The notes under the pieces are model-generated. The model made no database searches. It had not been told where the DNA came from and was given only the letters and a program-made list of their open reading frames with translations. A DNA stretch of 64,000 bases from Octopus vulgaris (Eukaryota): assembly GCA_951406725.2 (NCBI GenBank), contig OX597816.1, forward strand, positions 20,398,001 to 20,462,000. The letters are read 5' to 3'. The first letter of the stretch is position 1; each line of letters starts with the position of its first letter. The position numbers were made by a program, and so were the translations under genes. Of this stretch, positions 820-45,647 are shown piece by piece.

Positions 820-1312
<493 letters not shown>

Positions 1313-1699
1313 CTATCAGTACCGGCTCCATACAAACAACGTTGAATCTCGGCAAAATGTGCTACTCTGCAGAAGTCTAATAAACCCATTCAATATCTCA
1401 ACAGACACTAAATCTAGCAATGAATGAATACAGACACTTATCCAATTGCTTACCTGTATTTAAGTGCTGCCACTAGACATTTCTGAAGTTCTCACCTTTG
1501 ACCTTCTGAGATTAATTTTCCTCAGAAGTAGCAATAGTTTCTCTCAATACTACCATAATTTCAACTAATTAAAAAATATATAAGTGCCGTCTTCTTACGT
1601 ATTCTAAGCTTTTCTTCTCGAAATGACTTCTGCCACAGGCTCCGGCTGACCAACAATTTTCGAGTTCCATTTCCCAAACCGAAACTGAAGAAGGCACCT

Positions 1700-1971
1700 G
1701 TGTATATTATGCGTGTATGAGAGAGCCTATGTGTGCATGTGTGTATATGTGTATATTTTTATACAAATATATATATATACATGCATATATATATGCATAT
1801 ACATATATATATGTATATATGTATATATGCATATACATATATATATGTATACATATATGTATGTATATATACATATATAGGTATGTATATATGCATATAT
1901 ATGCATATGTATATATATACATATATATATATATATACATATGCATATATACATACATATATATACATATG

Positions 1972-2002
<31 letters not shown>

Positions 2003-2180
2003 GTGTGTGTATATATACATATATATATATGTATATATGTATATATGCATATATATATGTATATGCATATATATATATGTATGTATTTTCATGTATGTAT
2101 TTGAGTGTGTGTGTATATGTGTTTGTGTGTGTGTGTGTGTTTGTGTGTCTATGTGTATGTGCGTGTATATAAATATACAC
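1700..2180. repeat. Degenerate (TA)n/(TG)n microsatellite
   Basis: Alternating purine-pyrimidine tract that generates the Y/I/M/H-rich ORFs. Confidence 0.95.
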
Positions 2181-3659
2181 AATATTATACATTTCCTACA
2201 GACACGTTTCTCGTCTACAAGTAATAGAAGTAATGTAGAAAGACATTAAATCATAATAAATCTGTTTCTGAGGGAAAAATCTCCGTTTATTGATTATCTC
2301 TGTTTCCTCAAACTTAAATGTCTGCAGAGTTAAAGTTCAGGGTCACAGACTTGCAATGTCATGAGTTTTCAAATTTGCAACAGCTATTCTATACTTCCTC
2401 TAGGCATCCTACAATGACTATGTTTTCTACAGACAAACAAAACTGAAAATAGATGCAGCAGTTCACAACTTCTCCAGCTTTATGCTTTAGTGGTTTGTGT
2501 GACAAAATGCATCCAAGTGTAAAAATACTTGCTCCAGAAACTGAATATGCAAATATCTCGATGTTGTTCATCAGCTTCGTTCCATCTTTTTTTTTATCAA
2601 GAAATATTTATTTCTCGCGTAGACATACGCATAGGTAACAGTGCCAAGTGGTTAAGCCATTGTGTAAAGGTCATAAGCTTGCGAGGATAACCGATTGAAT
2701 TATTACTTTATGGATCGTGGGTTTATTTTTGCTGCTTAGATCCCGGTCATTCCTGATAGAACGGACATCAGGGATATCATGACGTCTCGGTGGTGAGCGA
2801 CCCGTCAGTTATTTTTGAAATTTATTTATTGATTATCGGAAATATTTCATCCAAATATACCCCATCTGTTTATATTTTAAGACTTTAAGGACAGAAATTT
2901 ATTTAAGGTAAATGTGACTTCTGACTTAAAGAGAGCGCTATCGGTTCAAGTGACGCCGTCGACATTATGTTTTGTTTCGTTTTTGAGGTAGGGAGCTCTC
3001 TTTTTCAGTAATTCTGAATTCTCCTTGGTCCTAAAGGATACTCATATAAATTTAGCTCTACATGTATTGTAATTACTTATTCATTAATTAACAATTCACT
3101 CATATAATGCTTATTTTAAAACATCTTCATTATTACCAGTTCACTTCGCATTTATTTCGAATAACTAAAACTTATATTTTATGTACGCCTCCGTACGGTG
3201 TCACATCCTTTCATTGCTCTAATACTTTTTACTCACTGGTATCTCTGCTATTATGTACAAGTATATCTATGTTTCATTTCGATTCATACTTTCTCGTGGT
3301 TAATTGACTACGTAGAACTTAATATTTCTGAAATATTCCATGCACTTCATAATACAACTTATCTAAACAAAAAATATCTGTTTTTGTGTATTGAGTTGTC
3401 ATCTAAATTCTTCCTTGTTTCAAAAGACGTAAGATTTAATTAAATTTCTAAAAATGATAACCAGAAAGTTTAGATCAAATGGAGTTACAAATCACCATAA
3501 CGAGAGAAATAGATGTCGTCTGGATTCAAATAACAGACGATACAATGAAAATAAGTGGGAAAACAAAAACGAACTCGTTTATTTGACAACCCGATGCCAT
3601 CCGCGCTCTCTCTCCCTTCACAACACTCGAATTTCAGCATGGAAATCCTCTTGGTTTAA

Positions 3660-3879
3660 CCCTTTAGTGTTCAGATTACTCTGTAAAATGTAATACTTTT
3701 CCACTCAAATTGTTTTGAATTAATCATGCATTATCTTATAGCTTTGGGGTTTCAATGATGTGATTGTTTATATTTAGAATGACATTGTCGGGTAGGTGTG
3801 AGAGGCTAGATATTGCCAGTTTGAATATAAAACATGTAGAATATCTGGGCCAGATATGGCCGGTTTAAACACTAAAGGG
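3660..3879. mobile_element. piggyBac-type MITE
   Basis: TTAA|ccctttagtgtt ... aacactaaaggg|TTAA: terminal inverted repeats with CCC/GGG ends and TTAA target duplication. Confidence 0.85.
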
Positions 3880-4256
3880 TTAAAGCCTTTTTTCCCCACA
3901 TGGTCATTTTATAAATTATATTGCTTAAAAGGGCACTTCACAAATTAACCTTTCTCTTTGAAAACAGGAAATAGCTCAGCCATTGCCAATTGTTTAAATG
4001 CAGTGCTGAAGTGAAGCCTACGCTGAAGTAATAGGTGTAAATGCGGTCGTAACAGCTCCTAGATACACAAATATTGTTAAATGCATCCTAAAAAGCGAAA
4101 AGGTCACGGCAGATTCGTTTTGATTCACTCCTAAACACACTGCTTCTCTACACCGCCGCTTCTTACGCTACTAACAGGTCCTTTCCTACTGCACTCACTA
4201 GCATTACACTCTTATGTACCAGTCAAGCACACACGTCCTTTTCATTCAAAACCTTG

Positions 4257-4476
4257 ACACTTTAGCATTTAAACCACCCATATCCAACCAAAATAGTCTA
4301 CCTGTTTTATGTTCAAGCCAGTCAGGTCTGGTTTCTCACAACTACCCTACGATGACAATCTAAAACATAAACAATCACACCATCAAAAACTCAGTTATGA
4401 GATGATGCATGATTAATACAAAGCATTTGAATAACTAAGCATCATTTTTGACAGAATTATCGGAATGCTGACGGGT
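4257..4476. mobile_element. Diverged second copy of the piggyBac-type MITE, opposite orientation
   Basis: ctttagcatttaaacc...atgctgacggg; internal sequence is the reverse complement of 3660-3879. Confidence 0.7.
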
Positions 4477-4548
4477 TCATGTACGTCATTCTATGATTCC
4501 ACACAAAACATATTATCTAATCCTTCCTTCACAGAACTGCAACCGCCT

Positions 4549-4965
4549 AAGGCGGCGAGCTGGCAGTATCGTTAGCACGCCGGGCGAAATGCGTAGCCGT
4601 ATTTCGTCTGCCGTTATGTTCTGAGTTCAAATTCCGCCGACATCGACTTTGCTTGTCATCCTTTCGGGTTCGATAAATTAAGTACCAGTTACGCACTGGT
4701 GTCGATATAATCGACTTAATCCGTTTGTCTGTCCTTGTTTGTCCTCTCTGTGTTTAGCCCATTGTGGGTAGTAAAGAAATAGGTATTTGGTCTGCTGCTG
4801 CGTTCTGAGTTCAAATTCCGCCGAGGTCGACTTTGCCTTTCATCTTTTCAGGGTTGATAAATTACTTACCAGTTACGCACTGGGGTCGATATAATCCGCT
4901 TAATCCGTTTGTCTGTCCTTGCTTGTCCTCTCTGTGTTTAGCCCCGTGTGGGTAGTAAAGAAATA
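4549..4965 (+). mobile_element. SINE family C, dimer
   Basis: aaggcggcgagctggcag head, B-box-like gagttcaaattcc, central gcctttcatcctttcggggtcgataaattaagtaccag (Nin/Deu-domain-like). The second unit restarts at ggtattt. Confidence 0.85.
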
Positions 4966-6970: not shown

Positions 6971-7716
6971 AAAAAATATGATGGATTTGTGCTAGTAAAA
7001 GAAGTGATTATGTGTGAAATTCGGATAAATATTTCAAGTCTGGAAAAATAAACATTTTTGCATCCCACCTTCTTTGCGCCGACCCTGAAAATATCCACTC
7101 GTAATTAGAATAACGACAAAGGAGAGTTAATACTTGATAACAATGAGGATAATAGGATATTAGGAGATGAAAAACAAAGCGTAACAAAACAAATTAATCT
7201 GAAAGAAAATAATTGAATAACTGTCATATTTTTGTGATGCAAACTCAACTCTGACAAAACTAATGACATCCCCAGCTTGACAGATTCTGCTTCTAAAATT
7301 CTGCTGAAATATATTTTATTATTCTATGGTGTTAATTTCATCGTATTATGTTGGGGCTATATAATCAACACTGCAAAACAGTTAGCGTAAACTATTCAAA
7401 GCTATCCAAAGAAAATTGTATCGAAACTTAATTGAAAATATTTAGAAGGAATTTTATAAAATATGTAATAAGAACAGTTGAAAAATAAAAATAAAAAACA
7501 CGGTGCCAGTGTTTGGATTTCAATGATTATCACAGTTGTCTTTTATTCAAAGAAATATCTATTCCTGACAGAGTATTTTGCATGGTATATTAGCAAAGTG
7601 TCTCCGGCCTAGAGGATATTTTCCTTTGAGCGGGGTGTATTTCGAGGAAAATATCGTACATTATATGACTTTAATTTTTTTTTGAATTAATAAATTGTGA
7701 AATTCTAAACAGATAT

Positions 7717-7925
7717 ACTCTCTTTACTCTTTACTCTTTTACTTGTTTCAGTCATTTGACAGCACCCATGCTGGAGCACCGCCTTTAGTCGTGCAAATCG
7801 ACCCCAGGACTTATTCTTTGTAAGCCTAGTACTTTTTCTATCGGTCTCTTTTGCCGAACCGCTACGTTACGGTGACGTAAATATTCCAGCATCGGTTGTC
7901 AAGCAATGCTAGGGAGACAAACACA

Positions 7926-7975
<50 letters not shown>

Positions 7976-8356
7976 CATATATACGACGGGCTTCTTTCAG
8001 TTTCCGTCTACCAAATCCACTCACAAGGCTTTGGTCGGCCCGAGGCTATAGTAGAAGTCACTTGCCCAAGGTGCCACGCAGAAGGACTTAACCCGGAACC
8101 ATGTGGTAGGTAAACAAGCTACTTACCACACAGCCACTCCTTGTGAAGCGATGCTGGGGAGACAAACACACACACACATATATACATATATATGACGGCC
8201 TTCTTTCAGTTTCCGTCTACCATATCCACTCACAAGGCTTTGATCAGCCTGAGGCTATAGTAGAAGATACTTGCCCAAGTGCCCCGCAGTGGGACTAAAC
8301 CCGGAACCATGTGGTTGGTAAGCAAGCTACTTACCACACAGCTACTCCTGCGCCTA
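7717..8356 (-). mobile_element. SINE family B plus tandem partial duplicate of its 5' half
   Basis: Full copy at 7717-8140 and a second 5' half at 8147-8356. Confidence 0.85.
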
Positions 8357-8420
8357 CTCATATGTTAGGAAATAATTGTACAATGACGAATACTCGTTTT
8401 TTTCTGAGTGACACATATTC

Positions 8421-8814
8421 AGGTGAGCTGGCTGAGTCGTTAGCACGCTGGACGAAATGCTTAACGGTATTTCGTCTGCGTTACGTTGTGAGTTCAAATT
8501 CCGCCGAGGTCGACTTTGCCTTTCATCCTTTCGGGGTCGATAAATTACGTACCAATTACGCACTGGGGTCGATGTAATCGACATAATACCTATGTCTGTC
8601 CTTGTTTGTCCCTTCTGTGTTTATCCTCTTGTGGGTAATAAAGAAATGGGTATTTCGCCCGTTGCTACGTTCTGAGTTCAAATTCCGCCGAGGCCGACCT
8701 TGCCTTTCATCCTTTCGGGGCTCGATAAATTAAGTACCAGTTACATACTGGGGTTGATCTAATCGACTGGCTCTTCTGCCAAAATTTCAAGCCTTGTGCC
8801 TATATTAAAAAGGA
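8421..8814 (+). mobile_element. SINE family C dimer (tail 1 then tail 2)
   Basis: Two gagttcaaattccgccgagg units; ends gccttgtgcctatattaaaaagga. Confidence 0.85.
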
Positions 8815-9559
8815 TACATATCCTCTGTACAAATTAAGGAAAGATGGTTTGCAATAAAATCAAAGAAATAAACTCTACTGTTGGAATGTCGGTTTGTTTG
8901 CAATTCAGCTGAATGTTTTTAAATGAGCTCTAATGAAGAGATTCAGATCTACAAGAGAAGGATATACTTCAGTACTAATGATGAATGGTGAAACGTTCTA
9001 GAATTTACAATCTATGATCGCCTCTTCAGTGTGACTAAATTAAATGTTCGTTTGGAAAATGATTAAAGAATATATTTCACTGATGAAAATATCTATGATT
9101 ACATCCAGTGGAGATCTAACTGCAGATTCATAACATTCTTTCAATCATATCAGACTCATAAATTTGTCAAAACTATTCTAAACTTGGTCCTCTCTCAATA
9201 TTAAATTTGGCAGTAGCGCTGAAAATAAATACCCATCTTCAAATATCTAAACGTATAAGTGTTAAATAACACCCACATCGGGTCAAATGTCTTCGTATTA
9301 TTTAAATAGCTGAACAAGGTAAATGGAGCTTAGTTCAGCACCTACAGGGAAACATATCAGAACCTTCCATCTTTACTGACTCAAGGAGGAATTTCAACCG
9401 TGTTTCGTGGTCTGCTAAAACAACAGCTCCTTTATAGGATCCAGTTAGCTCAAGACATCATCAAGAGGAGCCACGTCCAGTTTCGGCCCCTACTCCTCTA
9501 CCGTTTTGACGTGGCGCCCCCTCCTTTCAGAGGTGTCTTCAGCTCTGGTGTTGGGTGCA

Positions 9560-9850
9560 TGTTTTCTTTCTTCTCCTTACTTCTGTTCCCTGGTCTCTTC
9601 GATGTATCATCAGCGAGTGTCAGCCGGTGACTGACTGTCTTGTCTTTTGTTTGTCGTCGTCTTTGAATTTGGTGGTCATTCTTGCTACCTCGTAGGCAAA
9701 TTTTTTATAACTCGCTGCGTCATTTGCTTTCGGCCACTTAATCTTTGTCCTCTTCACGCCTATCACTGTTTTTGACTGTTCCAATTCAACTGTGAAATGA
9801 ACCTCGCTATGGTTATTTTCAGGAGGTTCTGGCCACACGTCTTATGGTTT
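9560..9850 (-). pseudogene. Remnant of an RLE-type (Hero/NeSL-like) non-LTR retrotransposon ORF
   Basis: Translation IKWPKANDAASYKKFAYEV resembles the KWPxAxxxxxWxxFDEDV motif recalled upstream of the RT in Hero-like elements; GC-richer than the flanks. Confidence 0.45.
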
Positions 9851-10759
9851 ATCAACCCACGTTGTTGAACTACTTTCTTTTGACACACCTTCCCTTGGTG
9901 GATTCTTAGCCCGATGTAACTATAGCAAACACTTTTCCGCAGAATAAATCTGAAATCACATCATATGAGCTAAACTTGTGAAAAGGATCGACGTCATTCT
10001 TCTTGAAAATCTATATAATGCTGAATTTAGCTGATAGTGATGTTTTTACACATGAACAGAGACAAGAAATTTGACAGGTTGTTTCAAGTCCGAAGATATC
10101 TTCAATCGAATAATGCTGTGATCTCCACAAGTCTGTCTTTTAAATATACATATATTTTGTAATGAGAATTAATAAAATACAAGGGCGAAGTTTCAGACTG
10201 GTTGCAATCACATTAGTACAGCAGTTTTAACATGATTATTTCTACGTTGCATTTCTCAGAGAAGGAAACAAATGAAGTACATTTCTTTTTAGTTCTTGAC
10301 TGAAAAATTGAGAATATGATATAGTCACAGAATTGCAGTAGACATGGAAAAAGTTACTGATTAGAAAAATAATTCATTTTCTGTAATTATGTAAATTAGT
10401 ATAATATTTTAGGAAAATAATCTCTTTTTAGAAAATAGAAAATGAAATATGTAAAACTAAAATTATATTTTAGGCTCGATAATTGTATATTGTTTGTAAA
10501 TATTGATGTCGTCTACTTTACACCTTCTTTAGAATTGCTTAGATGACAGGATGCTGAGTGATTCAGCACTGTGATAGTAAACGAAGATTGTAAACCACAA
10601 ATACAACAAATTCTCCCAAATATAGAAAATGAGATTCAGAGGTTCCCTCAACAGCTGATGGAGTCGTAGACATACCGTTGTAAAGTAAGGCGCATCTTCA
10701 ATATATTTTATATATCCTGCGATGACTAGTCCAACTGAGGTCTTCCGGTTCCCTATTTA

Positions 10760-11114
10760 TTCGACAAAGAGGCACAATCACACAAAGAAAGAAATATAAA
10801 AAGAGAAGAGTCGATGCTCCACACGCACATACACACTCTCTTATACACACGTACGCGCACCTTCGTTTTCGCATCACCAATACTTTATTATCTCCCCTTC
10901 TTCCTAGCCCTCCTGTGTGACCCCTCTGTCCGGCATTCGCCATGATAGATCGCTAGCCACTACACATTCTTTATATTCTCTCTTTGTTGTTATATGTGTT
11001 CCTTTCTGTGAAATAGCGTAGGCTCGAAACGTTAAAGACTTTTTCACTTCCCGAATGAATACATCTATTTGTTGTCTACACCACCTGTCTTCGTCTGTTG
11101 CATTTTTTGAATTA

Positions 11115-16239: not shown

Positions 16240-16277
16240 CTGTCTGATGAACGGCAACGAGAAACTCAGAGTAACAG
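16240..16277 (+). ncRNA. Minimal type I hammerhead ribozyme (family E)
   Basis: ctgt CTGATGA a-cg-gcaa-cg-a GAAA ctc-a-gag TA acag; identical to 38364-38401. Confidence 0.75.
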
Positions 16278-16706: not shown

Positions 16707-17027
16707 CAATTATTATTATTATTAAAAAAATAATATATAATTACACTTATTGTAAAAAGACCTATACGGTCGCTTTTCTCCGAAATTTAACAACCCTTAG
16801 GTTTCTTTACAAATTGATGAATATATATATATATATCTTAGAGGGCTCAATGCACTGATTTCCCCCCGCGGGGTGGGGGGGTTCTAATGTTACTCACACG
16901 CCCTTGGTGGAAGATTTATTGGTCAGTGTAGGAGAAAATGTGGTTCAGAAAGGAGGAAACAAACTATACGAAGATCGTGAAATTTTGTCGATGAATTGTG
17001 AAGTAATGGTGTGTCAGTAATTTGAAT

Positions 17028-17145
17028 ATGACGTAGTGGTTAAGAGTGCGGTCTACTAACCCTAAGATTCCGAGTTCGATTTCAAGCAATGACCTGGATA
17101 ATAACAATAAAAAAAAATAATAATAATAATAATAATAAATATAAC

Positions 17146-17183
<38 letters not shown>

Positions 17184-17361
17184 CAACAACAACATCGAAA
17201 AATACCTTAGGAATGAGAACCCAGGTTCGAAATTTCCCCAAGACACCTGATGAAGGCTGGAGGGTATATCAGCTGAAACGTTGTGTTAACAACAAACAAG
17301 ATGAGAACAAATATAGTCGAATGTAAATAATGTACATAATTCCTCGTCTTAAAAATAGAAC
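17028..17361 (+). mobile_element. Family D: tRNA-like head + (AAT)n + HHR-bearing tail
   Basis: gacgtagtggttaagagtgcg (A-box-like), gagttcgatttc (B-box-like), then AAT/AAC repeat and HHR; homologous to 38940-39175 and 36408-36540. Confidence 0.75.
17242..17287 (+). ncRNA. Minimal type I hammerhead ribozyme (family D)
   Basis: gacac CTGATGA a-ggctg-gagggtatat-cagct GAAA cg TT gtgtt; palindromic ACGT stem III as in dimeric Penelope HHRs. Confidence 0.7.
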
Positions 17362-32905: not shown

Positions 32906-33939
32906 GACTCTCGTCGTGACGAAAGAAAATCTATTTTTCTGCTCATTACCTTCCTAAAGACAACACGTGCTTATACTACCTCCTCTCATTAGCTCGTCTT
33001 CCTAGCGTTCATAATAATTCTTCTATAGTCTTGGCTCAACAGCCCTCACCGTTTGTTTTTACTGTTTTGTTCTCACTGTCCTGTTCTTGTTACCACTTTC
33101 ACCCTCCGCAAAACATCCCAAATTTTATTTAATTTCCTTTGCAGGAAGGAGAGACGATGAGCAATAGCTAGAGAAATAGTGCGCTTTATTTAATAACCAG
33201 TTGATCTAGCAAGCGGGGCCTCATATCAGTGATGCCGTCGTGAGGTAGGCCCAGAAACGGCGCGCATTTTCTCCTGATGACCCCATACACTTGCTGGCTT
33301 CCGGTATGCGAAGTTCTTGGCTTGTAGCACTTGCATGTGCAAGTTGTTTGCAAGACAACTTCGCTTTGAAGCTACACTCTTTTAGGTTTGCGTCTTACTG
33401 CGTGGTACCTTAGGCAAGTGTTTTCTATGATAGCCTCAGGTCTAACAATACTTTATGAGTAAGTTTAGCAGAAGGAAACTGTGTGGAAGCTCGTCATATT
33501 CATTTGTAAGTGTGTGTGTCGCGTTAGGTTTCTTCCCTTAGGAATCGAACCCACAACCTTACGATCAGGAGTTCAACACCCAAGCCACTAAGCCACGCGC
33601 CTCCACGATATAATAAATACCGGATTTTAAAATAAGTACTGAATTACTGAAACAAATAAAAGAAAAGTATAGATGTATCTTAAGGACGTGATGAAATATA
33701 AAATGCTACAATATAATAAGGAAATCGAGCCATTTTTTTTCCTTGTAGATCATTCCAGGCTTAATTAGAACGAAGAAACTTTCAAATGATGGCTTAACCA
33801 GCCAACATCTCTACACGAATAAATCTCTAAGACTCGCAATTCTTGGTTGGCGAAGGAAAGGCTGAATGCTTGGGCAGAGGGATTATAACTGTCTTTTAAA
33901 ATATTCCAGTAAAATACAGTATTTTGTTTTTGGTTTGTT

Positions 33940-36407: not shown

Positions 36408-36540
36408 TCAGCCGAAACGTTGTGTTAACAACAAACAAGATGAGGACAAATATCCGTCAATTGTAAATAACGTACAAAATTCCTCATCTCTTAAATATAG
36501 AATTACATACATAATTCCTCATCTCTTAAGTATAGAACTG
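36408..36540 (+). mobile_element. Family D 3' fragment with duplicated terminus
   Basis: cagccgaaacgttgtgttaacaac (HHR 3' half); aattcctcatctcttaa(a/g)tatagaa occurs twice. Confidence 0.7.
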
Positions 36541-38165: not shown

Positions 38166-38433
38166 GGAGTAATACACATAAATGTAAAACAAGGTGGAAA
38201 AAAGAGTACTCAAATACCAGTGGTAGAGTAATATGCTTTATTTTAAGCAGCAGAAAATTCAACAAAATCTGTTACTCTGAGTATCTCGTTGCCGTTCATC
38301 GGACAGTTTTTCTAGAATGGAACCGATATATCAATTGATATATCGGTTCCATTCTAGCAAAAACTGTCTGATGAACGGCAACGAGAAACTCAGAGTAACA
38401 GATTTTGTTGAATTTTCTGCTGCTTAAAATAAA

Positions 38434-38481
<48 letters not shown>

Positions 38482-38802: not shown

Positions 38803-39175
38803 CAGTTCTATATTTAAGAGACGAGGAATTATTTACATTATTTACAAATTAAAGGATATTTGTCCTCATCTTGTTTGTTGTTAACAACGTTTTGGCTGAT
38901 ATACCCTTCAGCCTTCATAACCACTACGCCATATGCCCAGGGCTACTAACCCCAAGATTCCGAGTTCGAATCCAGGCAGTGACCTGAATAGTAATACTAC
39001 TACTACTACTACTACTACTACTAATAATAATAATAATATCGAAAAATACCTTAGAAATGAGAACCCAGGTTCGAAATTTCCCCAAGACACCTGATGAAGG
39101 CTGGAGAGTATATCAGCCGAAATGTTGTGTTAACAACAAGATGAGGACAAATATCCGTCGAATGTAAATAATGTA
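38803..39175 (+). mobile_element. Family D copy preceded by an inverted copy of its own 3' end
   Basis: 38803-38918 is the reverse complement of the D tail; 38919-38935 is an inverted head fragment; forward D runs 38940-39175 with HHR at 39086-39131. Confidence 0.8.
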
Positions 39176-45110: not shown

Positions 45111-45647
45111 GTGGAGGCGCGTGGCCTAGTGGTTAGGGTGTTGAACTCATGATTGTAAGGTTGTGGTTTCGATTCCTAGACCGGGTGATGCGTTGTGTTC
45201 TTGAGCAAAACACTTCATTTTCGCGTTGCTCCAGTTCACTGGTAAAAATGAGTAACGCTGCGACGGACCGGCGTCCCGTCCAGGTGGGGAATTTCTACGC
45301 CACTGAAACCGGGAAACCGACCCTTATGAGCCTGGCATGGCTCAAGAAGGAACATTTATGTGGAGGCACATGGCCTAGTGGTTAGAGCAGCGGACTCGCG
45401 GTCGAGGGATCGCGGTTTCGAATCAGACCGGATGATGTGTGTGGTTATGTGCGAAACACATAAGCTCTACGCAGCTCCGGTAGTGGCGAACTTCTGCTGA
45501 CACTTTCGCCACAACTTTCTCTCACTCTTTCCTCCTACATCTTGCAGCTCACCTGCGACGGACCGGCGTCCCGTCCAGGTGGGAAACCTATACACCAAGG
45601 AAACCGGGAAACCAGCCCTTATGAGCCAGGCGTGGCTCGAGAAGGAA
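45111..45647 (+). mobile_element. Two head-to-tail tRNA-headed SINEs sharing tail A2
   Basis: 45111-45353 and 45360-45647 both carry ctgcgacggaccggcgtcccgtccaggtggg..gaaaccgggaaacc..cttatgagcc (MetaSINE-domain-like) but have different middles. Confidence 0.8.

Follow-up and report, generated by a model that had tools for sequence, protein, structure and literature searches.

Among the closest described systems to the repeat analysed here, family D, is Poseidon_Ac of the green anole, an element that, in the available part of its description (Frangieh et al., 2024; PMC11167929), has a single RT-endonuclease ORF, a pseudo-LTR (pLTR) that overlaps the start of this ORF, a hammerhead at the ORF start, and two 3′ ends about 30 nt apart that correspond to a tail. 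Family D has the same arrangement, and the use of uncleaved RNA as the main template in Poseidon_Ac is listed as a further likeness. The Poseidon_Ac ORF begins within the ribozyme, and its tail is delimited by two points of RT initiation (PMC11167929). Unlike Poseidon_Ac, family D has a pLTR that begins with a tRNA-like head containing A and B boxes followed by (AAT)n, an AUG upstream of the ribozyme core, and a sense strand without TTTT; it also shows a deletion hotspot at the cut site, whereas the available part of the Poseidon_Ac study reports no RNA ends there.

The minimal hammerheads of metazoan Penelope-like elements (PLEs), as set out in the accessible portion of the survey by Cervera and de la Pena (2014; PMC4209133), have a short helix I, an extra base between positions 9 and 10.1, a G10.1–C11.1 pair, and a palindromic 15.2–16.2 segment, and occur mostly as solo or opposite-strand copies. 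Family D agrees in each respect, and its ribozyme, which shows no difference from those described there, is an ordinary member of the group. The Penelope families of the rotifer Adineta vaga (Arkhipova et al., 2013; PMC3846280) are similar to family D in having a pLTR that covers the first codons and carries a 5′ palindrome, head-to-head junctions, target duplications near 10 bp, and solo pLTRs; as far as the main text of that paper goes, in which 'tRNA' occurs 0 times, their pLTR is of the TATA/Inr type without a tRNA head.

A Pol III-type promoter followed by a hammerhead is also found in the schistosome SM-alpha and Sj-alpha repeats, which the available part of their description (PMC6765202) presents as non-coding tandem repeats whose canonical active ribozyme frees monomers; family D, in contrast, is dispersed, arranged head-to-head, and lies within an ORF-bearing element. 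The TRIMp3 elements Cassandra, Helenus, and Ajax (Kojima, 2024; PMC10886601) resemble family D in carrying a small-RNA-derived Pol III promoter inside the terminal repeat, a promoter proposed to derive from SINE insertion, but are short non-autonomous LTR elements, whereas the family D repeat is part of a coding PLE of about 2.6 kb. In the portion of that paper used here, Pol II is assumed to serve autonomous retrotransposons and Pol III their short parasites, and the autonomous partners of TRIMp3 are argued to require Pol II.

Features of the focal copy and of other loci in the window

The window, the 64-kb stretch of Octopus vulgaris DNA that was analysed, contains a focal copy of family D with an A box, a B box, a spacer, a second GGTTCGAA motif, and a hammerhead, all of which had been listed in the preliminary description and are real (Table 1). 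The copy had been taken to start at 17028 and in fact starts two nucleotides earlier, at position +5 of the head. The spacer, given there as (AAT/ACT)n, is variable as stated, but the focal one is of the AAT/AAC type and the ACT type belongs to the copy at 38.99 kb. The second GGTTCGAA motif consists of ORF codons only, with no promoter role shown, and the ORF-start frame of the focal copy closes after 37 codons. Neither the head nor the ribozyme was called by Rfam or ARAGORN, and the 336-nt focal copy folded no better than shuffled sequences (z +0.86). The hammerhead has a 5-bp stem I, an extra A after A9, a stem II of 5–6 bp, a loopless palindromic stem III, and a GUU triplet; judged from its sequence, the focal ribozyme would need a second copy to form stem III and cleave at the predicted site.

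Table 1. Coordinates of family D features in the window.
Feature	Position	Strand	Remarks
tRNA-like head, 5′ end of the element unit	17026–17096	+	from sequence reading and head profile
A box	17029–17039	+	one change relative to the family majority
B box	17072–17083	+	
(AAT/AAC)n spacer, 5′ UTR of the element	about 17097–17195	+	length highly variable among copies
Penelope ORF start	17213–17361	+	ATG at 17213
Second GGTTCGAA motif	17224–17231	+	within codons of the ORF start
Minimal type I hammerhead	17242–17287	+	predicted cut after 17282
Optional 3′ tail	17335–17361	+	on one arm of inverted pairs
Third locus, 3′ fragment with doubled tail, no head	36408–36540	+	
Second insertion, tail-bearing inverted arm	38803–38938	−	
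Second insertion, tail-less arm with partial head, spacer, and ribozyme	38941–39175	+	

Three copies had been reported in the window; there are indeed three loci, of which only two have a head, and the second insertion is a head-to-head pair. The hammerhead core pattern occurs four times in the 64-kb window compared to 0.22 expected, and three of these four matches belong to another family. This second hammerhead-core family lies at 16244, 38368, and 62629, with a head-to-head pair at about 38250–38440, and a similar pair occurs at the end of locus L035. A/B-box heads of unrelated tRNA-SINE families are also present, at about 33540–33595 on the minus strand and at 45365.

Association of family D with a Penelope-type ORF

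We used the sequence shared upstream of several heads as a search query and took 30 loci among the 40 matches listed. The head directly followed the ORF end in all 30 of these loci, and the ribozyme module was also present in 29 (one beyond a 0.8-kb gap); among 20 loci selected by RT matches, the head followed the ORF end in 14. At loci L232 and L444, nothing separates the tail from the ORF body, and the reading frame runs on from one into the other. The fixed ORF-end/head junction and the continuity of tail and ORF body thus define a unit consisting of the head, the spacer, the ORF start with ribozyme and tail, the ORF body, about 30 nt, and the next head. As in EN+ PLEs, the pLTR repeats the element's own 5′ end downstream of the ORF and contains a minimal hammerhead. 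No other pLTR for the family D ORF was seen among the ORF-end- and RT-selected loci.

DNA upstream of the head matches RVT_1 (E 1.2e-9), and the ORF encodes RT followed by an endonuclease-like domain. The majority sequence of the ORF body, built from 57 segments, is 2382 nt long and forms a single open frame of 783 codons. Pfam GIY-YIG gave no match in its C-terminal part; the translations show a VY..PCxC..YxGET..EH..H..E..H..R pattern whose likeness to the PLE endonuclease, a GIY-YIG domain with a CCHH motif, was judged by eye against the available description in PMC8557442. They also lack the CX2-5CxxC linker between RT and endonuclease, which in that source marks the Penelope/Poseidon clade. 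Seven database proteins with RT annotation match the ORF at 52–69% identity, a PDB sequence search returned distant RTs only, and metagenome relatives have hammerhead pLTRs of their own. All RT copies scored were decayed, with no intact copy found among them, and of 150 scored RT matches all except the query were at most 86% identical to it. Contigs from sequencing runs of four labelled organisms span the ORF-end/head junction. These results make it highly probable that family D is the pLTR of a protein-coding Penelope/Poseidon-type element and not a separate SINE.

The tail had been expected at the ends of PLE ORFs, and the head block does follow the ORF end in the loci selected by that end; loci selected by GIY-YIG matches, in contrast, belong to other families without a family D pLTR, and we rejected them as partners. 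An unrelated PLE in L075 that lies beside a 30-nt family D tail was also rejected as a partner, because 29 other copies of that old PLE family have their own pLTR and tail, and the L075 tail is therefore a solo insertion. This insertion (L075:6625–6654) consists of the 30-nt tail alone and is 100% identical to L002. Apparent sister families among low-identity RT matches proved to be decayed copies of family D. The tRNA-like sequences upstream of relatives L354 and L409 were rejected as pLTR heads since they are flanking DNA, and the 80 relatives thus yielded no further PLE with a tRNA head.

The searches also recovered a different, apparently young PLE family, at L075:1439–3781 and in many other places, with many open 781-codon ORFs that match RT and GIY-YIG; its pLTR, which is unrelated to family D, has a degenerate hammerhead core. 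An old PLE family at L111–L140, with 70–76% identity between copies, has its own tail and its own hammerhead with a long stem II region.

Copy number and subfamilies

To estimate abundance, we counted exact 36–38-mers across the searched genome, whose 2.8 Gb lie in about 30 large contigs, and corrected the counts for the fraction of sampled copies with an exact match. The ribozyme, head, pre-tail stretch, and ORF end had 1730, 612, 2235, and 203 exact matches, respectively, and the estimates are about 21,000 ribozyme copies (13,000–38,000), 16,000 heads (6,000–58,000), and 1,800 ORF ends (900–4,700). Copies diverge from the majority by about 5% and fall into two subfamilies defined by linked variants, one of which is at the free N7 core position (p 2e-22). 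Comparison of 87 ORF-linked copies with 123 copies that begin at the head revealed no site that differs beyond chance (lowest p 0.013 among the 21 sites listed); solo and ORF-linked copies form no separate subfamily. A segmental duplication carrying one element copy accounts for loci L233 and L234, which lie on the same contig at a distance of 11 Mb and share 97% identity across more than 5 kb.

Insertion anatomy and copy ends

Among 441 distinct copies, 142 head-to-head pairs were found, in which the tail was present on exactly one arm in 114, on neither in 7, on both in 4, and unclear in 17. Neighbouring copies were head-to-head in 127 cases and tail-to-tail in 5. Non-LTR retrozymes and SM-alpha-type repeats form non-coding head-to-tail arrays of hammerhead-cut monomers, and the mainly head-to-head neighbours of family D do not follow that arrangement. 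Target duplications of at least 6 nt flanked 58 of 113 pairs, many of 9–13 nt, compared to 2.8% of swapped controls. An inverted pair with a tail at one end and a target duplication is the PLE signature in the part of PMC8557442 drawn on here. In EN+ PLEs, the inverted partner is 5′-truncated and the optional tail at one end measures 30–40 nt, and the pair counts of family D agree with this arrangement.

The two arms of a pair agreed in subfamily state at position 66 in 84 of 97 cases, and 19 of 843 rare variants were common to both arms. As the arms are mostly alike in subfamily state and share few rare variants, both appear to come from one source; the 3-nt deletions described below occur independently in the two arms, from which we infer that the arms are two separate cDNAs.

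The preliminary description had suggested testing whether 5′ ends stop at the tRNA-like head, and in the majority they do. Of 84 copies selected by their head, 52 end at −8 to +1, with peaks at −7 and at −2 to −4, while 19 end inside the head and 13 further upstream; copy loss per nucleotide was 0.164 at −8 to +1 versus 0.023 inside the head. In 14 of the 84, a fold-back occurs at a short palindrome around +1. Copies selected by their tail (70) comprised 10 linked to the ORF, 17 that start at the head without an ORF, and 10, 16, and 17 that end in the head, spacer, and module, respectively. Extension of copies upstream into an ORF, which had been offered as a possible refutation of the SINE interpretation, is therefore seen in a minority only (13 of the 84 heads and 10 of the 70 tail-selected copies). 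No pile-up of 5′ ends was present at the predicted cut among the 70 copies, in which only positions 94, 100, and 101 fall near position 98. The 3′ ends cluster at module positions 149–156 and 179–182.

Rotifer PLEs that have no tRNA head also carry palindromes where their pLTRs begin, as the available part of PMC3846280 describes, and a 5′-end pile-up alone thus does not name the polymerase. ORF-linked copies at L170, L241, and L296 are without the short palindrome upstream of the head, as if RT had skipped the hairpin; such occasional skipping within copies means that the hairpin itself may be what halts RT. In three head-less copies (L096, L098, and L102), the spacer adjoins a long (AAT)n tract, which in two cases follows a LINE-like 3′ end; such junctions may reflect microhomology or a template switch.

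The simplest reading of the copy ends is that −6 and −2 mark the RNA start and that internal RT initiation yields solo copies. Transcription would start about 6 or 2 nt upstream of tRNA position +1, and RT would start internally at two tail sites, as described in the accessible account of anole Poseidon_Ac (PMC11167929). Copying of just the 5′ 300 nt of the RNA would then produce solo copies that resemble SINEs, and two cDNAs from the same source would be linked 5′ to 5′, in many cases by way of the short palindrome immediately before the head.

Is family D a SINE?

Family D had been interpreted as an independent tRNA-derived SINE with a borrowed Penelope tail, a reading under which the ORF-linked cases are secondary. 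The tRNA-like head with A and B boxes and the (AAT)n stretch do look like those of a SINE, and 71 of the 84 heads are not preceded by an ORF. The insertion anatomy also supports the proposed dependence on Penelope machinery. A SINE, however, is a non-autonomous family distinct from its partner except for the tail, and here the whole block is the partner's pLTR: the head joins the ORF end at an identical point in 30 of 30 loci, the family D ORF has no alternative pLTR among the loci seen, and both subfamily states occur in both the solo and ORF-linked classes. Moreover, no free-standing SINE with a family D head was found in 1.55 Mb of searched sequence, much of it selected for family D. We consider an independent SINE very improbable. 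Insertion of the ribozyme module into the tails of a free SINE was likewise rejected, because heads are present in both arms of pairs and the ORF junction is fixed. The other possibility raised in the preliminary description, a pLTR that captured a tRNA-like promoter, matches the data.

A deletion hotspot at the predicted cut

Covariation across copies had been suggested as a check on stems I and II, and none was found (0 of 13 pairs in 24 distinct rows); this absence is uninformative because copies decaying neutrally from few sources cannot show covariation. A 3-nt in-frame deletion spanning the predicted cut was present in 36 of 265 copies. By comparison, similar 3-nt deletions occurred at 42 of 4205 copy-sites (1%) across 80 ORF sites with similar microhomology, the highest single site being 4 of 47, and a neighbouring perfect AAC repeat had lost 3 nt in 11–15 of 268 copies. 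The deletion was equally frequent in both subfamilies (28 of 194 and 8 of 55), showed no linkage to other sites after correction, and was independent between pair arms (both arms in 3 pairs, one arm in 23, neither in 74).

The 3-nt loss is the exact outcome expected if RT jumps from the 3′ to the 5′ cleavage product with a 2-nt overlap, and may be a scar that records cleavage in vivo; alternatively, slippage on folded but uncut RNA could have produced it. The ribozyme would not define the ends of copies, but probably cleaves part of the templates, and RT would lose 3 nt in crossing the cut.

The tRNA-like head and the polymerase

When aligned with genomic tRNAs of the five isotypes sampled, the head matched tRNA-Arg(TCG) best (z 6.2), with tRNA-Thr close behind (z 6.1). 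The best non-family matches to a profile of 144 heads were another tRNA-SINE and then a genomic tRNA-Arg(TCG) gene. The family majority keeps the A and B boxes intact. Pol III terminates at T runs, and we predicted that an element read by Pol III should be without them. The ORF majority contained no TTTT in 2294 nt (35 segments) or in 2382 nt (57 segments), the 2382-nt version also had no interrupted terminators (T3VT2 or T2VT3), and TTTT was absent from the head and ORF-start majorities.

How surprising this absence is depends on the null. A count model based on 75 of 80 relatives (5 near-duplicates were dropped, and the relatives are not independent of each other) gave 6.1 expected runs and a probability of zero runs of 0.002. 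Three codon nulls gave 2.9–3.7 expected runs and probabilities of 0.018–0.039 (0.026 with the codon usage of other PLE families, 0.018 with that of 13 open-frame relatives, and 0.039 with the element's own usage), and base shuffling of the 2294-nt majority gave 3.8 expected runs (P 0.019). With the same majority, the deficit was not significant under synonymous shuffling (P 0.077) or Markov models (P 0.13 and 0.29); the Markov nulls already incorporate the deficit of TT (observed/expected 0.81, the lowest value among 19 sequences). Other PLE ORF stretches of the O. vulgaris genome have 1–9 TTTT runs in 0.9–2.3 kb, and 4 of 52 relatives of at least 1 kb are likewise without TTTT in the matched part. 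A metagenome PLE family (L366, L367, L368, and L415) has 0–2 TTTT runs in its ORF, a T-rich pLTR, and no tRNA head, and thus counsels caution about the T-run test.

A TATA-like TTTATAA lies at −36 to −30, about 28 nt before −6, and is compatible with Pol II as well. Three standard RNA-seq runs yielded 7,461–10,765 reads each, about equally in both directions, and showed no start pile-up at the head; a depth step and loose ends at −7 mirror the genomic junctions.

Intact A and B boxes at the start of the unit and a TTTT-free 2.4-kb ORF make Pol III transcription of the whole element plausible, and we regard it as having about an even chance. Our leading interpretation, held with evenly balanced confidence, is that family D is the solo pLTR of a coding Penelope/Poseidon-type element whose head serves as the internal Pol III promoter for the entire element. 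Possible, with clearly less weight, is that Pol II starts near −6 through the TATA-like site, located at the ORF stop in tandem copies, and that the head came along as a passenger when a SINE or tRNA retrocopy bearing an (AAT)n tail inserted into the 5′ UTR; internal RT initiation alone would then account for solo copies. The position of the site at −36 to −30, TATAAAT-like motifs ahead of the hammerhead in relatives L354, L355, and L409, and the TATA and Inr-like motifs of Adineta pLTRs, described in part of PMC3846280, all favour such a start, and internal initiation of the kind reported in the available part of PMC11167929 accounts for solo pLTRs without a new promoter. A passenger head, however, would not be expected to form the 5′ end of the unit and to retain an intact A and B box, as this one does while ARAGORN and Rfam no longer call a cloverleaf, and the absence of TTTT over about 2.6 kb is improbable under four of seven nulls.

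A division of labour between the polymerases is unlikely in our view. Under it, Pol II would make the mRNA, and copies that keep the head would give short Pol III RNAs, ending at the first run of Ts in the flanking DNA and copied in trans, so that the pLTR acts as a built-in SINE. The excess of solo copies that start at the head over ORF-linked ones (52 versus 13 of 84, and 17 versus 10 of 70), the lack of any T run between head and tail, and the limits on Pol III transcript length argued in the portion of PMC10886601 used here are in keeping with such a scheme. Secondary sources, however, should create subfamilies private to solo copies, which are not seen, and the absence of TTTT in the ORF body would be left unexplained.

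Discussion

Most of the biology of family D is already known; its unusual features are the tRNA-type head on a coding element whose sense strand has no T runs and the cut-site deletion hotspot. In the literature outside Repbase, Dfam, and most subscription journals, we found no tRNA-headed or Pol III-transcribed PLE and no such deletion scars; family D may be contained in the repeat library of PMC13282606, a source available in part.

The strongest form of the Pol III interpretation, which we offer tentatively and consider rather doubtful as a whole, is that an autonomous coding element exchanged a Pol II promoter for one captured from a tRNA, rid its 2.6-kb unit of Pol III terminators, and is translated and copied off Pol III RNA, with a 5′ end that is a built-in SINE and a hammerhead that cuts in vivo, leaving a 3-nt scar in about one-seventh of copies. 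One point against Pol III is that an uncapped RNA of this kind would be poorly translated. If this interpretation were true, a coding PLE under a tRNA promoter would break the Pol II/Pol III rule, and how an uncapped 2.6-kb RNA gets translated would become a question; the scar, in turn, would document in the genome both that PLE ribozymes are active and that RT jumps across the cut.

Family D illustrates a route by which a SINE-looking family can arise as the end of its own autonomous element, and SINE-looking pLTRs are relevant to repeat annotation where most SINEs are unclassified. As to what PLE hammerheads do in vivo, the available part of PMC11167929 reports no RNA ends at the cut site, and a deletion hotspot at the predicted cut provides a countable signature for other PLE families. 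Two length variants are the most frequent in the ORF-start module of family D, a duplication of 9 nt ahead of the tail and the loss of 3 nt at the cut site, and neither disrupts the reading frame.
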